Shown here one piece after another: positions 5,558 through 58,576 of a stretch of DNA of 64,000 nt. This stretch comes from Thermoanaerobaculia bacterium (GTDB lineage Bacteria; Acidobacteriota; Thermoanaerobaculia; Gp7-AA8), in assembly GCA_036522835.1 (NCBI GenBank), contig DATDFB010000093.1, forward strand, positions 40,683 to 104,682, given 5' to 3'. Position 1 is the stretch's first letter. Every line of letters starts with the position of its first letter. The notes beneath the pieces are model-generated. The model was not told the DNA's origin. It worked only from the letters and a program-made list of their open reading frames with translations, and ran no database searches. Position numbers and translations under genes: made by a program.

Positions 5558-7762
5558 TCACGTTCGCCGCAAAGCGTGCAAAGCCGCCGCGCCCGGCGAG
5601 GCCGCTGACCGCGACGGCCGCGCCGGCGATCTGAACGCCGCCGCAACGGCCCCGCGGAGCATCGACTCCGAGGGAATGTACGGAATCGCGCCGCCGCACA
5701 TGGCCTCATCCCGCCGTCTGTGCCAATCCGTGACTTTCGAGCGATGGAGATCCGCCGCGCGCGCGAGAACGAAGTCTCGCGTGATCGTCGATCGCGTTTC
5801 GCCCGCGATGGGCGGTTGGCCGCGATCCAACAGCGGAAAGTCATTCATGATGAGAGCCGCGTCGTCCAGGTCGAGGCCGTACGCTTTGAAGATCGTCGCG
5901 TCGATCGTGGCCCGGAGCGCCGCCGCCGCGAGCATCGTGTCCCGGCTCGAGCCGGCGGACGCGAGGCGTACGAGCTTCCGCGCGTCATCGGCCAGTCTCC
6001 GCGTCGCGATCGTCTCCTCCATCAGGCTGGCCGGGACCGGCAGGCTCCGCAAGAGAAAATAATTGACCGTCGTGGTGATGACTCTTCGGGCCACCCAGTC
6101 GAAGGCAAAGCTGTTGAGCAGGGCCAGGAAGCGCAGCCGCTGAACTTCATCCTCATCACCGAAGGAGATCGTCGGCACCTTGTTGCCGCAGACGACGCCG
6201 GCCGGAATTGGCGCGGCCAGAATGGCGCGCTCGTTCGTCTGCCCGGTGGTGTCGCAGAAGCCCAAGCGCTCGCGGAAGGCGCGCTGGAGCGTCCGCTCGG
6301 GAAGCGAATCTTTCTTGCACCAGAACTGCGGCGCGGTCGCGGCGTCGCCGAACGGCAGCGGCGTCCATTGCGCGCGGCGGCCGCTGCCGCTCGCATACGC
6401 TTTCGCGCCGAACAGATATTGATTCACCATGCGGCCCTCGACAATCGGAAGAGCGCCGCTCGAGCGGTGCCGCGAGAACAGGGCGCGGTCGCGCGTCATG
6501 TCGAGCTCGCGAACGATCGTCGGCTGCCAGCGCGGCGGCACGTCGCTCCACCTCTGGCTATGACGATAGATGGCCCGGAGCACCCGCCATTCGGCGGGCC
6601 CGCGCACCTCCGGCACCGTCAGGTCTGGCCGCATGGCCTGCAACTGACGGATCGGGATCCGAACGCTCGACTCGGATGGCGCGGCGTGCGCGACTTCGAA
6701 TGCGCGCGCGCCCTTTTTCGCAACGCGCGCCGTGAGCGCGAGAAACTTGAACCGCGAGTCGATGGCGAAGAACCGCGCGCGATTTTCCATGACCACCAGG
6801 CGAAGGCCGCTCGTTCGTCCGAGCAGCAGTTGCCGCAGCTCTTCGGTCGATTGCGAGCGAATCAGGCCGGCGGGGACGAGCACGGAAAGCCGCCCGCCGC
6901 TGCCGGCCAGCCGGAACATCAGCTCCAGAAATGCTCTGTAGAGATCGGGCTCGCCGTTTCGGAGAAGCGGATACCGCTCGAGGAGCTGCATCGCATACGA
7001 GCTGACCTGCTCGAGCCCGGCCTCGTACGCGCGCAACGCCGATGAATCGTAGTCGGCGCCGTAGTGCCGCTCGCCGCCGAGCGACTGGATGTATTCGTGC
7101 CGCGAGAGCTTCAACTTCTCCCACGGCGGATTGGCGATCACCAGGTCGAAACCGCGCTCCGGGACGCCGGCGAGGAGACTGTCGTGCCGGCGCCAATGCG
7201 AATTCATTTCGTCGATGGCATCGAGATCGTCGACCATCGACGCCAGGGCCAACCGCGCGCCGCGCAGCGCGGCCGCCGACCGGTCCGCCGCATAGACGCG
7301 GTCGCGCAGCCACGACGCCGTTCGCACCCGGTCCGACCCGCACGCGGCCATGACCACGGCGGCGAGCAGCACGCCCGACCCGCTGGCCGGATCGATGACC
7401 CGGCCGTCCATGGCGTCGCGAGACAGGCCGGCGAGATATTGCGCAAGCCGGAAGTCGGTGTAATACGCGCCGGCCGTCCTCCGCGACAAATGCGGAAGGC
7501 GCTCGCGCGCGAGCGCGCTCAATGCCAGCGGAAGCGGAATGGCGATGTTGGAGAGCAGCGCCACGACGCGCTCCGCTGCCGCCAACGCTTCGTTCGCGCG
7601 GATGCGCGGCGAGAGATGGAAGCGCCGCCAGTATTCACGTACATCGAAACCGCCCGCTCGCGACGACGCCGCCTCGAGGACGGCCACGCGATCGTCGACC
7701 TCGGCGAGCAATAATTCGACAGGCGCTAAAAGCTGATCTTCGTGCGTCGACGCGACGGTCAA
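5558..7762 (-). CDS. gamma-class N6-adenine DNA methyltransferase (Eco57I/TaqI-like) with TaqI_C-type target-recognition domain, no nuclease domain
   Basis: YYTDFRLAQYLAG, SAM motif I VIDPASGSGVLL, catalytic motif IV IANPPWEKLK, GGRLSVLVPAGL, C-terminal LALLNSFAFDWVARRV (TaqI_C-like). The first 183 codons of the ORF overlap the dam gene and are Arg-rich junk. Proposed TTG start overlaps the dam stop (TTGA). Start uncertain. Confidence 0.75.
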   Translation of the reverse strand: MTVASTHEDQLLAPVELLLAEVDDRVAVLEAASSRAGGFDVREYWRRFHLSPRIRANEALAAAERVVALLSNIAIPLPLALSALARERLPHLSRRTAGAYYTDFRLAQYLAGLSRDAMDGRVIDPASGSGVLLAAVVMAACGSDRVRTASWLRDRVYAADRSAAALRGARLALASMVDDLDAIDEMNSHWRRHDSLLAGVPERGFDLVIANPPWEKLKLSRHEYIQSLGGERHYGADYDSSALRAYEAGLEQVSSYAMQLLERYPLLRNGEPDLYRAFLELMFRLAGSGGRLSVLVPAGLIRSQSTEELRQLLLGRTSGLRLVVMENRARFFAIDSRFKFLALTARVAKKGARAFEVAHAAPSESSVRIPIRQLQAMRPDLTVPEVRGPAEWRVLRAIYRHSQRWSDVPPRWQPTIVRELDMTRDRALFSRHRSSGALPIVEGRMVNQYLFGAKAYASGSGRRAQWTPLPFGDAATAPQFWCKKDSLPERTLQRAFRERLGFCDTTGQTNERAILAAPIPAGVVCGNKVPTISFGDEDEVQRLRFLALLNSFAFDWVARRVITTTVNYFLLRSLPVPASLMEETIATRRLADDARKLVRLASAGSSRDTMLAAAALRATIDATIFKAYGLDLDDAALIMNDFPLLDRGQPPIAGETRSTITRDFVLARAADLHRSKVTDWHRRRDEAMCGGAIPYIPSESMLRGAVAAAFRSPARPSRSAASPGAAALHALRRT

Positions 7763-12479: not shown

Positions 12480-12850
12480 GACTCGTTTGTCGCCGCCAGT
12501 CGCACGATCGTCGTCAACGTTGTCGACGGCGATGTGAACGGTATCGACGATGTCGTGAACGTCTTCGACGGAGGTCGTGAACCGTATCGACGACAAACCT
12601 GAACGTCATCAACGGCGTTGTGAACATCTTCGATGATGTCGTGAACGTCATCGACGATCTCGTGAACGGTATCGACGGCGTTGCAAACGTCTTCGACGAT
12701 GTCGTGAACCGTATCGACGACAAACCTGAACGTCATCGACGATGTCGTGAACGGTATCGACGGCGTTGCAAACGTCATCGACCGCGATGTGAACGTCATC
12801 GCCGGGTATCATCAACGTTATGAATACGTTGTGAACGTCATCGACCGGCT
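12480..12850. repeat. imperfect 21-22 bp tandem repeat array (~16 units, consensus GTCGTGAACGTCATCGACGAT, 126-bp higher-order unit)
   Basis: Read directly. Units vary by 1-nt indels so no frame is conserved. Lower GC than flanks. Lies between convergent 3' ends of features at 12414 and 12961. Confidence 0.85.
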
Positions 12851-28275: not shown

Positions 28276-28881
28276 ATGCCGCAGAGTCAGTTCCTAGTTC
28301 CTAGTTCTTCGTTCTTCGTTGAGGATCCGTGGCGGGTCCCGCAAGGTTGTGTGCCGGTTTCGTTGCGGCGCGCGACTGACGGCGCTGCGCCGCGGCTCGC
28401 CACTTCGCTCGCGCTTTATCACGACGGCGAGTGTTTGACGGCGGTGTTCCGCGGCGAAGACGACGGCGTGCATGCGACGTTTCTGCAACACGATGATCCT
28501 CTGTTCAAGGAGGACGTCGTCGAGCTCTTTCTCGCGCCGGAGCGGCCGTCGCGCTACTTCGAGATCGAGGTCAACCCCCTCGGCACGACGTTCGACGCCG
28601 TCATCGACTCGCCCGATCTCGATCGCGCCACGATGCAAAGCGATCTGGCGTGGACGTGCGAGGGGCTCTTCACCATGGTACGCACGACGCCGAACTCGCT
28701 CGACGTCCTGGTGCGCGTTCCCTTCGCCGCCCTCGGCGCGAAGCCCGAGGGGGAGTGGCGGGCGAACTTCTACCGCATCGACCGCGGCACGCCCGACGAG
28801 TACACGGCGTGGCAGCCGACGATGAAGACGCCGCCGGACTTTCACGTGCCGCGCGCGTTCGGCGGGCTTCGTTTTGCATGA
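28276..28881 (+). CDS. hypothetical protein, carbohydrate-binding-family-9-like / DOMON-like
   Basis: YFEIEVNPLGTTFDAVI and later segments resemble CBM9-like domains. True start uncertain, because the ATG at 28276 lies inside a heptamer repeat only 23 nt from the divergent Hpt start. Confidence 0.45.
   Translation: MPQSQFLVPSSSFFVEDPWRVPQGCVPVSLRRATDGAAPRLATSLALYHDGECLTAVFRGEDDGVHATFLQHDDPLFKEDVVELFLAPERPSRYFEIEVNPLGTTFDAVIDSPDLDRATMQSDLAWTCEGLFTMVRTTPNSLDVLVRVPFAALGAKPEGEWRANFYRIDRGTPDEYTAWQPTMKTPPDFHVPRAFGGLRFA
28289..28325. repeat. direct heptamer array (A/C)GTTC(C/T)T x5
   Basis: agttcct agttcct agttctt cgttctt cgttgag read directly. Confidence 0.6.
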
Positions 28882-32854: not shown

Positions 32855-33571
32855 ATGACCAAGATTCTGATCGTTGAGGACGAGGCGGGGCTGCGCCAGG
32901 GGCTGGAGATCAACCTTCGCCTGGAAAACTACGACACGATTCAGGCCGCGGACGGCGAGGAAGCGATCCGCCAGTTCCACGCCGAGAAGCCCGACCTGGT
33001 GCTGCTCGACCTGATGATTCCGAAAAAGAGCGGTTTCGAGGTCCTCGACCACATCCGCAAGTTCTCGAAGATCCCGGTGATTCTCCTGACCGCGCGCGGC
33101 CAGGAGACCGACAAGGTGCGCGGCCTGCGCGGCGGCGCCGACGACTACGTGACCAAGCCCTTCGGCCTGCAGGAGCTCTTCGCCCGCATCGACGCGGTGA
33201 TGCGCCGCAGCGAGGCGCCCGCGGCGTCGAGCAAGGTGATCTGCGAGGACGAGTTGATCAAGCTCGATCCCTCGACGCGCGAGGCCTCGGCGAAGAACCA
33301 GAAGCTCAAGCTTTCGCCGAAGGAGTTCGACCTGCTGATGTATCTGTTCAAGAACAAGGAGCGCGTCGTCCCGCGCGACGAGCTGCTCTCGCGCGTCTGG
33401 AACTACCGCGTCGACCTGAACCTGAACTCGCGCACGGTGGACACGCACGTGACGCGGCTGCGGCGCAAGCTGCAGAAGGCGGTCGGCACCGACTCGGCGG
33501 TGATCGTGGCGGTGGCGAAGATCGGGTATCGGTATCTGGGGGAGGCGGCGGCGGCGGTGACGAGCTCGTAG
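32855..33571 (+). CDS. OmpR-family winged-helix response regulator
   Basis: ILIVEDE, LVLLDLMIP, PVILLTAR. C-terminal LSPKEFDLLMYLFKN...RTVDTHVTRLRRKL. Confidence 0.9.
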   Translation: MTKILIVEDEAGLRQGLEINLRLENYDTIQAADGEEAIRQFHAEKPDLVLLDLMIPKKSGFEVLDHIRKFSKIPVILLTARGQETDKVRGLRGGADDYVTKPFGLQELFARIDAVMRRSEAPAASSKVICEDELIKLDPSTREASAKNQKLKLSPKEFDLLMYLFKNKERVVPRDELLSRVWNYRVDLNLNSRTVDTHVTRLRRKLQKAVGTDSAVIVAVAKIGYRYLGEAAAAVTSS

Positions 33572-33600
33572 TTCTTGGTTCTTGGTTCTTAGTTTGATAC
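33572..33600. repeat. short heptamer array TTCTTGG x3
   Basis: tagttcttggttcttggttcttag immediately after the response-regulator stop. Confidence 0.6.
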
Positions 33601-40428: not shown

Positions 40429-40540
40429 TGGTTTGTTCTTGGTTCTTGGTTCTTGGTTCTTGGTTCTTAGGTTCTTAAGTTTCGCAAACCTAAGAACCTA
40501 ACAACCTAAGAACCTAAGAACCTCTCTGGCCTCCCCCCTG
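40428..40540. repeat. heptamer-array hairpin: (GTTCTTG)x6 ... loop ... (CTAAGAAC)x4
   Basis: gtttgttcttggttcttggttcttggttcttggttcttaggttcttaagttt-cgc-aaacctaagaacctaacaacctaagaacctaagaacc read directly. Imperfect ~35-bp stem. Confidence 0.8.
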
Positions 40541-51006: not shown

Positions 51007-51576
51007 ATGAGCGCGAGCGTCGACTCGTCGGCAGCGTTGATTCCAGCGGTGGCCCAGGGCGACATGGCCGCCTTCGAGGCGGCTTATGACCGTTACTCGG
51101 GCACGCTGTACGCGCTATTGCTGCGCATTCTCGGCAACGCCGAAGATGCGCAGGAAGTGCTGCAGGAAGCGTTCGTCAAAGTCTGGACGACGGCGCGCAT
51201 GTTCGACGCGGCGCGCGGCAGCGAAGTGGCCTGGCTGATCTCGATCGCGCGCAGCAAAGGAATCGACAAGCTGCGCTCGCGCAAGATCCGCTCGGACCGC
51301 GAGAACGACGCCGGGCGGGAAATCTCGATTCACTCGGCTTTCGTAGATAAGACGACGGGGGCGGATGTCGCCATCCTGTCGCAAGAACGAATTGCCGTGC
51401 GCAACGCGCTCGCCGAATTGCCCGAGGCCCAGCGCATCGCACTCGAGCTTGCCTACTTCGAGGGACTCTCGCAATCGGAGATCAGCGAGCGTTTGCACGA
51501 GCCCCTCGGCACGGTGAAGACGAGAATGCAGCTCGGGATGAAGAAACTGCGGGAGCGGCTCCAGGCCTTTCGATGA
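51007..51576 (+). CDS. ECF-type RNA polymerase sigma factor
   Basis: Sigma-70 region 2 (YDRYSGTLYALLLRIL...) and region 4 (LELAYFEGLSQSEISERLHEPLGTVKTRM). Confidence 0.9.
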   Translation: MSASVDSSAALIPAVAQGDMAAFEAAYDRYSGTLYALLLRILGNAEDAQEVLQEAFVKVWTTARMFDAARGSEVAWLISIARSKGIDKLRSRKIRSDRENDAGREISIHSAFVDKTTGADVAILSQERIAVRNALAELPEAQRIALELAYFEGLSQSEISERLHEPLGTVKTRMQLGMKKLRERLQAFR

Positions 51577-52355
51577 TCGCGCACGACGAAGCACAGGAGA
51601 TCGCCGCGCTCGACGCCGTCGGCGCCGCGTCGGCGGAGGAAGAGCGCGACCTCGGCGAGCATCTGGCCGCGTGCGCGGAGTGCCGGCGCGTCCGTGACGA
51701 GTACGCCGAGGCGGTGACGCTCTTGGCGCGCGGGCTCACCCCCGTGCCGCCGCCCGCCGAGCTGCGCGAGCTGGTGGTCAGCGGCGAAGCGGCCGACAAC
51801 GTCGTCGACGCCCGCCGCCGCTTCGGCTCGAGCAAGTGGTGGCTGGCCACGGCGGCCACGATTTTCCTGGCGCTGTGGGGCTGGCGCGAGCTGACGATGC
51901 GCGTCGAGCGCGAGAAGTACGCGACGCAGGAGGCGGAGATCCGGCGCCTGGCCGAGGACAACTTGCGGCTGTCGCAGAACAACGAGAAGCTGAGCGCGGA
52001 AATGGCGTCGCTGGCCTCGGCCGGCACGCGCACGATCTCATTGAGCGGCCAGCAGGCCGCGCCGAGCGCCTCGGCGCGCGTCTTCCTCGAGCCGGAGCGG
52101 CGCCGCGCGATCGTGTTCTTCTACAACCTGCCGGCGAACGCGAAGGACAAGAGCTATCAGCTCTGGATTATCACCGCGAAGCCGCAGAGCGCCGGCGTCT
52201 TCGACGTGACCGGCAGCGGCAACGCCACAATCACGATCGAAAACCTCCCGGTGGCGACGGAGATCAAGGCGCTGGCCGTGACGCTCGAGCCGCGCGGCGG
52301 CGTGGCCCAGCCGACGAATAGCAACTTCTTCGTGATGGGGAGCTCGTCGTTGTGA
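51573..52355 (+). CDS. anti-sigma factor (zinc-finger, RskA-like C-terminal domain)
   Basis: ATGA overlap with the sigma gene. HLAACAECR HxxxCxxC motif. Single TM. C-terminal anti-sigma-K-like domain. Confidence 0.8.
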   Translation: MIAHDEAQEIAALDAVGAASAEEERDLGEHLAACAECRRVRDEYAEAVTLLARGLTPVPPPAELRELVVSGEAADNVVDARRRFGSSKWWLATAATIFLALWGWRELTMRVEREKYATQEAEIRRLAEDNLRLSQNNEKLSAEMASLASAGTRTISLSGQQAAPSASARVFLEPERRRAIVFFYNLPANAKDKSYQLWIITAKPQSAGVFDVTGSGNATITIENLPVATEIKALAVTLEPRGGVAQPTNSNFFVMGSSSL

Positions 52356-52356
52356 C

Positions 52357-52405
52357 GTGGTGACGGGTGACAGGTGACGGGTGACAGGTGACAGATGCAC
52401 ACCAC
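52357..52405. repeat. heptamer array (GGTGACR)x6 flanked by 32-bp direct repeats copying the 3' end of the anti-sigma gene
   Basis: DR1 52325-52356 cttcttcgtgatggggagctcgtcgttgtgac. DR2 52406-52436 cttcttcgtgatgggagctcgtcgctgtgac. Array gtggtgacgggtgacaggtgacgggtgacaggtgacag lies between them. Confidence 0.8.
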
Positions 52406-52476
52406 CTTCTTCGTGATGGGAGCTCGTCGCTGTGACTACGGAAGAGGTACGATATCTGCGTCGTTTGAATGGGCGG

Positions 52477-52710
52477 AGGACCACCATGGCCACGATCACA
52501 TTGAACCTGCCGGATGACGCGCTCGCCGAACTTCAGGAGACAGCGGCGAAGAGCGGCGGGCTCGACAAGTTTTTCGAAAACGCACTAAGCCTCGCCAAGG
52601 TCGTCTCCGACGAGACACGCCTGTCGGATGGGAAGCTGCGTGAGGATCGTGTCGTCGCGATCGCTGACAACGAGGGAAAGGTCCTGAAGAAGGTCAAATT
52701 CGTCAAGTGA
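52477..52710 (+). CDS. small hypothetical protein with RHH-like N-terminus
   Basis: Strong SD GGAGGAccaccATG. MATITLNLPDDALAELQETAAKSG fits a beta-strand plus helix pattern. 78 aa. Confidence 0.5.
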   Translation, partial: RTTMATITLNLPDDALAELQETAAKSGGLDKFFENALSLAKVVSDETRLSDGKLREDRVVAIADNEGKVLKKVKFVK

Positions 52711-52714
52711 CCCC

Positions 52715-53101
52715 ATGAGCGAAGGCCCTCCACCGCCAGGCCCACCACAAGCGCCGCCACCCGCCGCACCGCCGCCATCCGATGGTGGCAGCAATGTGAC
52801 AGTGACCGTCGGCTCGGTGAATCGGAGCACGGCGGAAGACTTCAACCCTGCCAAAGAGAAAGCTCTTGGCGCGCGCGGCATTGCACGGGTTCTGGTTTAT
52901 ACGTTTGCGGGTGCCGTTGCCGCGTTGTTTCTCACGATCGTATTCATCTTCGGCCTAAGCGCGTCACCCTCACAAGCGGGAGCTTTCGTGAAGGCATTCG
53001 TCGAGATCGTACCCGTCATGGAGAACTTCGTGACGAAGGTTTTCGGACCGCTGCTCGCATTCGTGCTGGGGTATTACTTCGGCGAAAAGAAGTCGGCCTG
53101 A
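52715..53101 (+). CDS. small Pro-rich two-TM membrane protein
   Basis: N-terminal PPPPGPPQAPPPAAPPP. Two hydrophobic helices. 128 aa. Confidence 0.5.
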   Translation: MSEGPPPPGPPQAPPPAAPPPSDGGSNVTVTVGSVNRSTAEDFNPAKEKALGARGIARVLVYTFAGAVAALFLTIVFIFGLSASPSQAGAFVKAFVEIVPVMENFVTKVFGPLLAFVLGYYFGEKKSA

Positions 53102-53139
53102 CCCTACAGCCCGACGATGTTTGGAAGCTCGGCGCTGTA

Positions 53140-53207
53140 AGGAGGTGACGGGTCACAGCAAACAGGTGACAGATTGCGATGACCTGTTACCTGTTACCCG
53201 TGACCTG
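53140..53207. repeat. heptamer-array hairpin (GGTGACG/GGTCACA ... CCTGTTACC...) flanked by ~22-bp direct repeats copying the fabI 3' end
   Basis: DR1 53102-53125 ccctacagcccgacgatgtttgga. DR2 53208-53231 acctacagcccaacaatgttgtac. Both encode ...NIVGL* on the minus strand. Confidence 0.8.
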
Positions 53208-53211
53208 TGAC

Positions 53212-53985
53212 CTACAGCCCAACAATGTTGTACCCGCAATCGACGTACAACACCTCGCCCGTGATCGCCGACGACATCGGCGACAGCAGGAAGAGCGCGC
53301 TGTTTCCGATCTCCTCGAGCTCCACGTTGCGGCGCAGGGGCGCCTTGTCGGCGTAGTGCTTGAGCATCCCGGTGAAGCCCTTGATCCCGCGTGCGGCTAA
53401 GGTGTTGACCGGGCCGGCGGAGATGGCGTTGACGCGGACGTTCTTCGGGCCGAGGTTCGCGGCGAGGTAGCGGACCGAAGCTTCGAGCGAGGCCTTGGCC
53501 ACGCCCATCACGTTGTAGCCCTCGATCGCCTTCACCGCGCCGTAGTACGACATGGCCAGCACCGCGCCGCCGCCGCTCTTCTCGAAGAGCGGGACGGCCG
53601 CGCGCGTCAGACCGACGAGCGAATAGGCAGAGATGTCGTGCGCGGTCTTGTAGCCGTCGCGCGAGGTCTTGAAGAAGTCGCCCTCCAGATCTTCGCGCGG
53701 CGCGAAGGCCACCGAGTGCACGAGCGCGTCGAGCCGTCCGAACTTGGCGTCGACCTCGGCGAAGACGCCGTCGATCTCCGCGTCGCTCGTGACGTCGCAG
53801 GGGAGCAGCAGCGCGTCCGGCAGCGTCGAGCTCAGCGCCTCCACGCTCTCCTTCAGCCGCTCGCCCTGGTAGGTGAAGGCGAGACGCATCCCCTCGCGCG
53901 CGAGCGCCTGCGCGATCGCCCAGGCGATGGAGCGCTTGTTGGCGACACCGAAGATGAGGCCGGTCTTGCCTTCGAGTAATGCCAT
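53212..53985 (-). CDS. fabI: enoyl-[acyl-carrier-protein] reductase (NADH)
   Basis: MALLEGKTGLIFGVANKRSIAWAIA N-terminus. Y-x6-K catalytic pattern (SYYGAVKAIEGYNVMGVAKA). Confidence 0.9.
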   Translation of the reverse strand: MALLEGKTGLIFGVANKRSIAWAIAQALAREGMRLAFTYQGERLKESVEALSSTLPDALLLPCDVTSDAEIDGVFAEVDAKFGRLDALVHSVAFAPREDLEGDFFKTSRDGYKTAHDISAYSLVGLTRAAVPLFEKSGGGAVLAMSYYGAVKAIEGYNVMGVAKASLEASVRYLAANLGPKNVRVNAISAGPVNTLAARGIKGFTGMLKHYADKAPLRRNVELEEIGNSALFLLSPMSSAITGEVLYVDCGYNIVGL

Positions 53986-53999
53986 GGGCGGATTCTATG

Positions 54000-54062
54000 C
54001 GAATGCAGAATGCAGAATGCAGAACGCAGAATTTTTGGCGCGGCGCCTCTTTCTGCATTCTG
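54000..54062. repeat. heptamer-array hairpin (GAATGCA)x4 ... loop ... (TGCATTC)x2
   Basis: gaatgcagaatgcagaatgcagaacgcagaa-tttttggcgcggcgcctcttt-ctgcattctgcatt in the divergent fabI / S9-peptidase intergenic region. Confidence 0.8.
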
Positions 54063-54080
54063 CATTAGGCTTCCGCCGCC

Positions 54081-58474: not shown

Positions 58475-58562
58475 AGGTGACAGGGCACAGGGAACAGGGG
58501 ACAGGTGGTTGTCGTCGCGAAAAACACCACCTGTCCCCCGTTCCCTGTGACCCGTCACCTGT
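58475..58562. repeat. heptamer-derived hairpin (GGTGACAGGGCACAGGGAACAGGGGACAGGTGG ... CCACCTGTCCCCCGTTCCCTGTGACCCGTCACC)
   Basis: ~33-bp stem with 3 mismatches and a 17-nt loop, between the adaptor stop and the ABC ATPase RBS. Confidence 0.8.
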
Positions 58563-58576
58563 AAAAAGGAGATCGA

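Follow-up and report, generated by a model that had tools for sequence, protein, structure and literature searches.

Are direct repeats on either side of a repeat array the footprint of its insertion, or can they arise in another way? The question is raised by a 64,000-nt stretch of DNA from a Thermoanaerobaculia bacterium of the Acidobacteriota (contig DATDFB010000093.1, positions 40,683 to 104,682; this whole stretch is called the window below). In it, an anti-sigma factor gene and the convergent gene for FabI (enoyl-ACP reductase) are separated by two arrays of heptanucleotide units and two small genes (here X1 and X2), and the 3' ends of both flanking genes, stop codons included, are found again between them. 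The original prediction took this for the insertion, in two independent cases, of mobile arrays similar to miniature inverted-repeat transposable elements (MITEs) or repetitive extragenic palindromes (REPs), with long target duplications, or for a template-switch event. On balance, we favour another answer: the window carries a composite allele of a hypervariable anti-sigma/fabI junction, in which the module of one allele type (T1) lies within the parts of a second (T2). The extra gene tails would then probably be native gene ends of stacked alleles, and not target-site duplications.

Gene tails repeated beside two arrays

We call the functional 3' ends A (anti-sigma) and F (FabI), and the further copies A', A'' and F' (Table 1). 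A and A' lie on either side of array 1 (49 nt) and match at 30/31 positions, apart from a 1-nt deletion in A'; local alignment of the left flanks gives a score of 25.5 against a shuffle maximum of 9.0 (0/500). At the right-hand array, F' and F match at 16/18 positions (17/19 counting one flanking base; score 14.0, shuffle maximum 10, 0/500), and both translate to NIVGL* on the minus strand. The repeats announced at the 3' ends of both genes are thus present, with two right-hand copies of the FabI end and with similarity beyond chance in each pair. The left repeat, first described as the last 10 codons plus TGA, comprises nine codons, TGA and one further nucleotide.

A third anti-sigma end, A'', sits between F' and the second array and translates to FGSSAL* where the same frame of the real anti-sigma gene has MGSSSL*. 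Its place directly before that array follows from a direct repeat, D1 (52333-52387 and 53118-53172, 76% identity over 55 nt), which pairs the two regions. In the predicted fold, A'' pairs with F' in a small stem-loop. Its assignment is ambiguous by nature because the two gene tails mirror each other; taken as an inverted copy of F' it fits less well (12/20) than as a copy of A (15/20) or of the anti-sigma tail of a close relative, L027 (16/20; loci of relatives are described in the next section).

The two arrays are unlike in structure, so that the hairpin elements first proposed for both sites are confined to the right-hand one. The latter, H2, is one long inverted repeat with a strong fold (plus strand z = -6.2, minus strand z = -4.5; -61 kcal/mol for a 146-nt segment), and it is very similar to the hairpin at the L027 junction. 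Array 1 lacks a second arm, folds at shuffle level (z = +0.29) and aligns with the left-hand portion of that same L027 hairpin, its left arm plus some of the loop. H2 may serve as a terminator without a U tract: no such tract, as an intrinsic terminator would have, follows it on either strand (the plus strand continues CUACAGCCC, the minus strand CUCCUUACAG). An Rfam scan of 50-56 kb returned on the hairpin only sub-threshold miRNA-precursor models (21-28 bits against the 78-83 required).

States of the orthologous junction

Scans with the anti-sigma protein gave 15 genome and 75 metagenome loci, ~90 in total, the close ones being soil metagenome-assembled genomes of Thermoanaerobaculia (Acidobacteriota). 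The order of sigma factor gene, anti-sigma gene and convergent fabI is kept in nearly all of them, and the sequence between the two stop codons is highly variable. Three simple states can be told apart, here called T0, T1 and T2.

T0 (L003, L019, L004, L022 and L073) has no insert, and the anti-sigma gene and fabI overlap by exactly 6 bp. The shared hexamer (CTATAG, TTATAG or TCATAG) provides the last sense codon and the stop on both strands: Leu-stop/Leu-stop in the four close relatives, with an anti-sigma Ser-stop in L073. In the four close relatives the flanks also mirror each other (tcgtcg-CTATAG-Nccgacga; the overlap of L003 lies within 5766-5795). The search for an empty orthologous site, proposed at the outset as a check, is thereby answered, and the locus is polymorphic.

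T2 is seen in L027, whose anti-sigma factor and FabI are 96% and 98% identical to those of the window at the amino-acid level. Its junction consists of a tail, the hairpin gcgGGTGACGGGTCACAGGTGACGGGTGACAGGTGGCGATGACCCGTGACCTGTGACC and a tail, with no duplication, and its fabI tail allele, cagcccaacaatgtt, is the same as F in the window. The hairpin units (GGTGACG GGTCACA GGTGACG GGTGACA ... CGTGACC TGTGACC) make it the same element as H2. About 20 other alleles have hairpins of other 7-8-nt units, with folds of -30 to -118 kcal/mol; the units include GGGGACA, GCGATTA, GAGTGAC, GGACCTAT, GGTTGCC, GAGTGCT, GCATAGC, GAGCTCTT and others, at least 12 types in all.

T1 has the order anti-sigma gene, a spacer of ~50-60 nt, X1, X2 and the fabI end, with neither arrays nor duplications. 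In L100, whose flanks are as near to the window as those of L027 (fabI 94.7%), X2 is followed by 5 nt and then the fabI end; in L021, X2 and fabI overlap by 6 bp. L093 has a T1-like X2-fabI end on a contig that stops short of the anti-sigma gene.

The spacer-X1-X2 block of L100 is bracketed by an 11-nt direct repeat, cgtcgttaTag / cgtcgttaCag (L100 176-191 and 852-866), and L019 (1344-1362) is the exact deletion product across a repeat of this type, which explains the origin of the 6-bp overlap. L011 has a tandem duplication of its whole GAGTGAC-unit hairpin (~88 nt, at 5790-5985), including the anti-sigma cgtag stop context. With the L100/L019 deletion and the L011 hairpin duplication, the junction is clearly prone to short-repeat events. 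It is a recombination hotspot, where other lineages have varied cargo, repeat arrays and hairpin units.

Nested structure of the window allele

The window allele is nested. From left to right it consists of a T2 left part (A and array 1), a T1 module (A', spacer, X1, X2 and F') and a complete T2 junction (A'', hairpin and F). In blastn, window 51758-52390 aligns with L027 1-633 and window 53123-53998 with L027 581-1442; both segments cover L027 581-633, and the window thus has two copies of the left part of a T2 junction, one on each side of the insert. The stretch from A' to F' aligns end to end with the native T1 allele of L100, from the gene end through the spacer (47/50) to the fabI end. 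F has the aac-aat form common to L027, and F' the gac-gat form seen in L100 and L019. What looked like two independent cases are hence the two ends of one structure, since A with array 1 and A'' with the hairpin and F both align with the single junction of L027.

Two joints hold the parts together (examples of sequences that span them are GGTGACAGATGCACACCACCTTCTTCGTGATGG and CAGCCCGACGATGTTTGGAAGCTCGGCGCTG). The right joint lies at 53121/53122 (...cccgacgatgtt/tggaagctcgg..., that is ...cgacgatgtt/tggaagctc...). Here the fabI end, a sequence from downstream, runs into the anti-sigma end, which belongs upstream; such an order would be the signature of unequal exchange or of a tandem-type joining. 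The left joint falls at ~52393-52405, between a remnant of the hairpin loop (agatgcac accac) and A'. Its exact base is not placeable: the 13 nt that precede A' retain 9/13 matches to anti-sigma genes, and A' may reach upstream to 52394 (9/13 matches to the anti-sigma gene of L021).

The dead copies themselves point in the same direction. Without its 1-nt deletion, the last 23 nt of A' through TGA are the functional L027 tail. Moreover, six of the seven in-codon differences between dead and live copies are silent: ttg>ctg in A', att>atc and gtt>gtc in F', and ggg>gga, ttg>ctg and tga>taa in A'', where tcg>gcg is the non-silent one. By our own calculation this has P ~0.001 at a chance fraction of 0.25 (from enumerated single substitutions in these codons), or P ~0.02 if half of the changes arose in the selected copy and the silent fraction is 0.4. 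Mostly silent changes fit copies that once served as gene ends in other genomes, an argument weaker than the structural one.

How could such an allele have come about? The ground state would be a pair of mirrored gene ends (TCGTCG-CTATAG-CCGACGA) with a 6-bp overlap. In T2 a mirrored heptamer hairpin would have been inserted at the centre of this palindrome, and in T1 the operon would run on through the spacer, X1 and X2 to the fabI end. Recombination of T1 with T2 DNA would then have formed the two joints, both illegitimate, with little or no shared sequence. One route may be homology-facilitated illegitimate recombination with DNA of a related strain, with one-sided anchoring in the flanking genes and an illegitimate second joint; a passage in PMC3240628 describes integration anchored by one-sided homology in this way. 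Another may be unequal exchange, or a template switch where a hairpin has stalled the fork. In a variant, sister copies would undergo exchange while related DNA is taken up (compare the transformation-generated merodiploids treated in a passage of PMC3784515). In the resulting allele the outermost copies are in frame with their genes and the inner copies are dead, A' being frameshifted by its deletion. The sigma factor gene, the anti-sigma gene, X1 and X2 can probably still be co-transcribed, because array 1 is only half an element, and H2 would close both convergent units. Of this account, the nesting, the two parental allele types and the restriction of tail copies to the window allele are observed; the sequence of events, the origin of the incoming DNA and the pathway are inferred.

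Several points weigh against this reconstruction. Among the orthologous loci no relative has only one joint, and the descent could run the other way: a deletion between the 55-nt D1 repeats in a window-like ancestor could have produced L027. Identity between the two copies of the T2 left part is just 76%, so either two different T2 donors were involved or much has changed since. The joints share at most 1-4 nt of microhomology (GATG / T). A' has an L027-type tail (ctgtga) and not the ttatag of L100, a detail in which the T1 parent must have differed from L100. Divergence of the X1-X2 block gives foreign origin no clear support: for every pair compared, X2 changes 2-3 times as fast as fabI, and the ratio of 3.0 for window and L100 is only slightly high. 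The silent-change argument is built on just seven substitutions, and a route of gene transfer in this lineage, natural competence included, is only assumed. Sliding identity against L018, L027, L003, L019 and L021 gave no near-identical segment beside the joints, with relatives that are all at <=96% nucleotide identity and thus too distant for donor tracts to be detected; the only incongruent patch lies around the FabI/S9 spacer.

The strongest competitor is template switching in situ, the alternative already named in the original prediction. In this account, replication in a T1 ancestor stalled at nascent GGTGAC arrays and strand switching copied the adjacent tails. The left side would have become A-array-A' and the right side F'-[A''-hairpin]-F, and L027 would have lost A'-X1-X2-F' afterwards, through a deletion between the D1 repeats. 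The account has some attractions. Relatedness is about the same among the window, L100 (T1) and L027 (T2) (fabI 94.7-95.8%), which allows T1 to be the ancestral state of the clade; losses between short direct repeats do occur here, as the L100 repeats and the L019 product attest; L011 has duplicated a whole hairpin with its stop context; and GTGAC, the core of the array unit, closes both A and A'. That the repeats arose by some rearrangement at the arrays that generates duplications is supported, and template switching is one viable form of it. It would take at least two complex and unprecedented events, however, together with a copying of the anti-sigma tail 785 bp downstream for A'', and the A-hairpin-F order of L027 would resemble the ~20 other clean hairpin alleles only by coincidence. 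Copies dead from birth should also gather random changes and not mostly silent ones, a pattern improbable even under the more generous of the two models above. We consider this account tentative, and less likely than recombination between alleles.

Do the duplications accompany the arrays?

If the arrays inserted with target duplications, such duplications, of a fixed and short length, should be the rule where arrays occur. For 46 distinct junction alleles, each gene tail was locally aligned with the intergenic spacer of the same allele. The window allele is the only one with significant tail copies (A score 24.5, F score 13.0, 0/200 shuffles each). L006 was flagged at p = 0.010 for an exact 10-mer inside a cargo gene, which we take as chance. 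By this alignment the ~20 other array-hairpin alleles have no tail copies, and at the five other arrays of the window (28289, 33571, 40435, 53990 and 58476) no flanking repeats were found (p = 0.43-0.94).

One of these arrays can be followed through the relatives. A GAATGCA-unit hairpin at window 53990-54066, between the divergent starts of fabI and an S9 peptidase gene, is an insertion/deletion polymorphism. It is absent in L003, L018, L027, L020, L022, L023 and L025 (empty site ggattgTAT/TAGGCTT) and present, with variable unit number, in L019 and L021, with a boundary ambiguity of only 2 nt. The spacer haplotype of the window here matches L019 and L021 and not the closest relatives. This suggests gain and loss of array hairpins at orthologous positions.

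Long repeats are thus not a footprint of the array family, and tail duplication is not a property of the arrays. The direct repeats are unlikely to be target-site duplications: they are absent at the five other arrays of the window and at the 45 other junction alleles, an outcome that the original prediction had itself named as refuting it. The MITE-like reading, with target-site duplications of 18-32 bp, is accordingly largely refuted, and we give it very little credence. It can appeal to the direct repeats immediately beside both elements, to presence/absence polymorphism at orthologous sites and to related units at a second locus (58476-58565). Besides the missing repeats elsewhere and the 2-nt ambiguity at the FabI/S9 hairpin, it has against it that the repeats at the two elements are unequal in length (31 and 18 nt), that the right-hand inserted unit includes the anti-sigma tail A'', which is unexpected of a mobile array, that L027 has the same hairpin without a duplication and that the left array is half an element with no fold. 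The unit sequences also vary widely between lineages, which argues against one sequence-specific transposase. Of the proposed mobility, then, the polymorphism of the arrays stands; the repeats give no proof of MITE-like insertion.

The composite is real DNA and not a chimera, since a 960-nt junction is identical in contigs of three assembly records (ENA ERZ923669, JGI 3300039426 and ENA ERZ27262795) and most of it is also spanned by a 973-nt Logan contig assembled from ERR1051325, a run that the ERZ923669 record names. That an assembler joined reads of co-occurring T1 and T2 strains through their common tails has a negligible chance of being right: relatives of both types do occur in soils and the short contig L099 breaks within array 1, but the same junction came from different assemblers and k-mer sizes (k127, k141 and JGI), the common tails (18-31 nt) are far below those k-mers, and the joints and the A'' sequence are found in neither parent type.

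X1 and X2

X1 and X2 had been read as a cassette between two elements. X1 encodes 74 aa from an ATG with a ribosome-binding site, or 92 aa from an upstream GTG, in place of the 78 aa first given. Neither protein matches a Pfam or NCBIfam family. A homolog search with X1 gave three proteins. At the X1 position, L021, L056 and L100 have orthologs, while L094 and a JGI contig have small open reading frames (ORFs). The AlphaFold2 model of X1 has low confidence (pLDDT 66) and predicts a beta-alpha-alpha N-terminus (strand 2-7, helices 10-23 and 26-36), with no fold match in the PDB at E <= 0.001. The earlier description as ribbon-helix-helix-like is compatible with this predicted start, which neither confirms nor refutes it.

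X2, first described as a 2-TM protein, varies in its Pro-rich N-terminus; its C-terminal half is conserved and, judged by eye, hydrophobic. It always follows X1, it has 61 homologs, and in all contexts examined the pair X1-X2 comes right after the sigma/anti-sigma pair. Its divergence roughly tracks that of the anti-sigma factor (80% and 77% amino-acid identity against 82% for L021; 55% and 64% against 63% for L056). X2 is 93% identical to its L093 counterpart in amino acids and 78% in nucleotides, which points to purifying selection. In L093 (1-315) the Pro-rich N-terminus is replaced by a long Gly/Ala-rich repeat, the 93% identity applying to the C-terminal half. In L056, L094 and one JGI contig an isochorismatase-family gene (Pfam) follows X1-X2. 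Because of this conserved context, the matching divergence and the purifying selection, X1-X2 is an old and often-lost tail of the sigma/anti-sigma operon, not a mobile cassette.

A motif of ~30 nt, cggaagaggtacgatatNtgcgtcgtt, lies upstream of X1 in the window (52439-52466), in L100 (218-246) and in L021, and may be a promoter or regulatory site. A promoter of the extracytoplasmic function (ECF) type was considered and rejected: the pattern GGAAG-N12-16-CGTC has 12 matches in the window against 7 expected and is not enriched. The ~150 nt upstream of the sigma factor gene have none, and a nearby match (51153-51177) lies inside that gene.

Layout of the locus

Table 1. Genes, gene tails and arrays at the anti-sigma/fabI junction, in window positions
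Feature	Position	Strand	Support
ECF sigma factor gene	51007..51576	+	Pfam Sigma70_r2, Sigma70_r4_2
RskA-type anti-sigma gene, functional copy, end ...FFVMGSSSL*	51573..52355	+	Pfam RskA_C 1.2e-21; NCBIfam antisigma
A, functional anti-sigma 3' end (9 codons + TGA + 1 nt), cttcttcgtgatggggagctcgtcgttgtgac	52325..52356	+	
Array 1, GGTGACR units then gatgcacaccac, 49 nt	52357..52405	+	Tandem Repeats Finder (TRF), period 7
A', dead copy of anti-sigma 3' end (1-nt deletion, ttg>ctg)	52406..52436	+	
Spacer 5' of X1, with conserved motif cggaagaggtacgatatNtgcgtcgtt	52437..52485	+	47/50 identical to L100
X1, 74-aa protein	52486..52710	+	
X2, 128-aa protein	52715..53101	+	
F', dead copy of FabI 3' end (NIVGL*), ctacagcccgacgatgtt	53104..53121	-	
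A'', degenerate third anti-sigma 3' end (FGSSAL*)	53120..53140	+	
H2, mirrored heptamer-array hairpin, arms 53143-72 and 53184-53213	53143..53213		inverted repeat and fold
FabI (enoyl-ACP reductase) gene	53212..53985	-	Pfam adh_short_C2 4e-89
F, functional FabI 3' end, ctacagcccaacaatgtt	53212..53229	-	

Hairpins and cargo at other sites

TRF places period-7 arrays in the window at 28289, 33571, 40435, 52352, 53180, 53997 and 58480, period 7 being the commonest class. Away from the junction, intergenic heptamer arrays or hairpins lie at 28289-28322, 33571-33597, 40435-40523 and 58476-58565, with GTTCTTG-type units at three sites; one array starts inside a stop codon (33569-71). The hairpin at 58476-58565 has its outer units, GGTGACGGGTCAC, in common with H2, and its core, ACAGGTGG...CCACCTGT, in common with the junction hairpins of L024 and L025. 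Because this relative of H2 with the same outer units exists, a dispersed hairpin family is plausible. Window 12504-12845 is taken up by ~16 tandem copies of a 21-nt unit (ACGACGTCGTGAACGTCATCG), in which higher-order periods of 63, 85 and 127 are also seen.

Other lineages fill the junction differently. L007 (5467-5913) has an inverted REP/MITE-like pair of ~60-nt repeats (...ggggagaaggtgccgaaggcggatgaggggg...) and also keeps the 3' remnant of an isochorismatase-like gene that is intact in L005, L006 and L008. In L048 the cargo is an ORF with an MsrA-type GCFWG motif and in L071 an ORF with a HELGH metalloprotease-type motif (both by eye). L084 and L065 have ~650 bp of imperfect 21-22-nt tandem repeats (ccacccggagtggtccgagaa) between the anti-sigma gene and fabI, and the anti-sigma frame enters them.

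Mirrored heptamer hairpins turn over quickly at orthologous sites. A bolder proposal, which we think improbable, is that they are a new class of self-propagating REP-like elements of Thermoanaerobaculia that seed at palindromic convergent stops, turn over faster than 5% divergence and, via fork stalling and template switching, drive tail duplication and gene stacking or deletion. If this were true, the window allele would be an intermediate of hairpin-driven gene gain and loss, caught in the act.

Implications

Convergent genes with overlapping mirror-image stops can turn into a recombination hotspot. Specifically, strains ~5% apart show the same site in four states: empty, with a hairpin, with two genes and stacked. 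The locus also illustrates that direct repeats beside a repeat element need not be target-site duplications. The long hairpins with mirrored 7-8-nt units form a lineage-wide class, with more than 12 unit sequences at one orthologous site. Their origin and possible role (termination, mRNA protection or selfish spread) are testable. The repeats themselves are best filed as recombination scars. The original observation is real and largely explained, and the more novel thread lies in the hairpin class and its possible role in rearrangement.

Comparison with known systems

A parallel in position and likely role is provided by REP sequences, bacterial interspersed mosaic elements (BIMEs) and REP doublets forming hairpins (REPINs), the extragenic palindromes of PMC3733652 and PMC3184786. 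Like them, the hairpins described here are GC-rich, intergenic, often at convergent 3' ends, dispersed and variable between strains; REP, BIME and REPIN sequences are thought to act in termination or mRNA stabilisation. REP and REPIN units are imperfect palindromes of 20-40 bp with a GTAG/CGTC head, present in high copy number and accompanied by a RAYT gene, whereas the elements here are 45-180 nt long and built of mirrored 7-8-nt units, with many units at one site; the element sequences read have no conserved GTAG/CGTC tetranucleotide head, and no RAYT or other transposase was identified, though no search aimed at one was made.

Heptanucleotide tandem repeats are also known from cyanobacteria as short tandemly repeated repetitive (STRR) sequences, and the window resembles these in having tandem 7-nt units in intergenic DNA, in several unit families. 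Similar arrays are the TAACTGA repeats of Beggiatoaceae, with 169 direct sets and one indirect (PMC4679880), and the four-heptamer elements of Geobacter (PMC2700814); a passage in PMC4679880 cites period 7 as the commonest class of longer simple repeats. The likeness lies in period-7 arrays that are mostly intergenic and have several unit families per genome. Those heptamer arrays are mostly one-sided and direct, whereas most of ours are mirrored into long perfect hairpins on stop codons. In the literature searched we found no description of mirrored heptamer-array hairpins in Acidobacteriota, and the class seems undescribed. The palindromic microsatellite repeats of Fusarium mitochondria (PMC7218506) are a formal analogue, being palindromes of repeated short units, optional in close relatives and linked to nearby indels and changes; they differ in belonging to an organelle genome and to another sequence family, and in having no gene-tail involvement.

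At the att sites of integrative elements, the direct repeats hold the stop-bearing end of a gene, which stays intact after integration. The tails here recall this arrangement. Unlike att elements, the locus has no integrase, a 49-nt array stands between the left repeats, and the pairs are nested around an operon segment native to the site.

Products of homology-facilitated illegitimate recombination have one homologous end, another end at 3-10 nt of microhomology and a donor tract beside the joint. The stacked allele would resemble such products, and merodiploids, in that related DNA is joined near homologous flanks and the outer copies are functional (passages in PMC3240628 and PMC3784515). 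It differs from what those passages describe in that two alleles of a short junction are stacked within ~900 bp beside hairpin arrays, and in being read from sequence alone.

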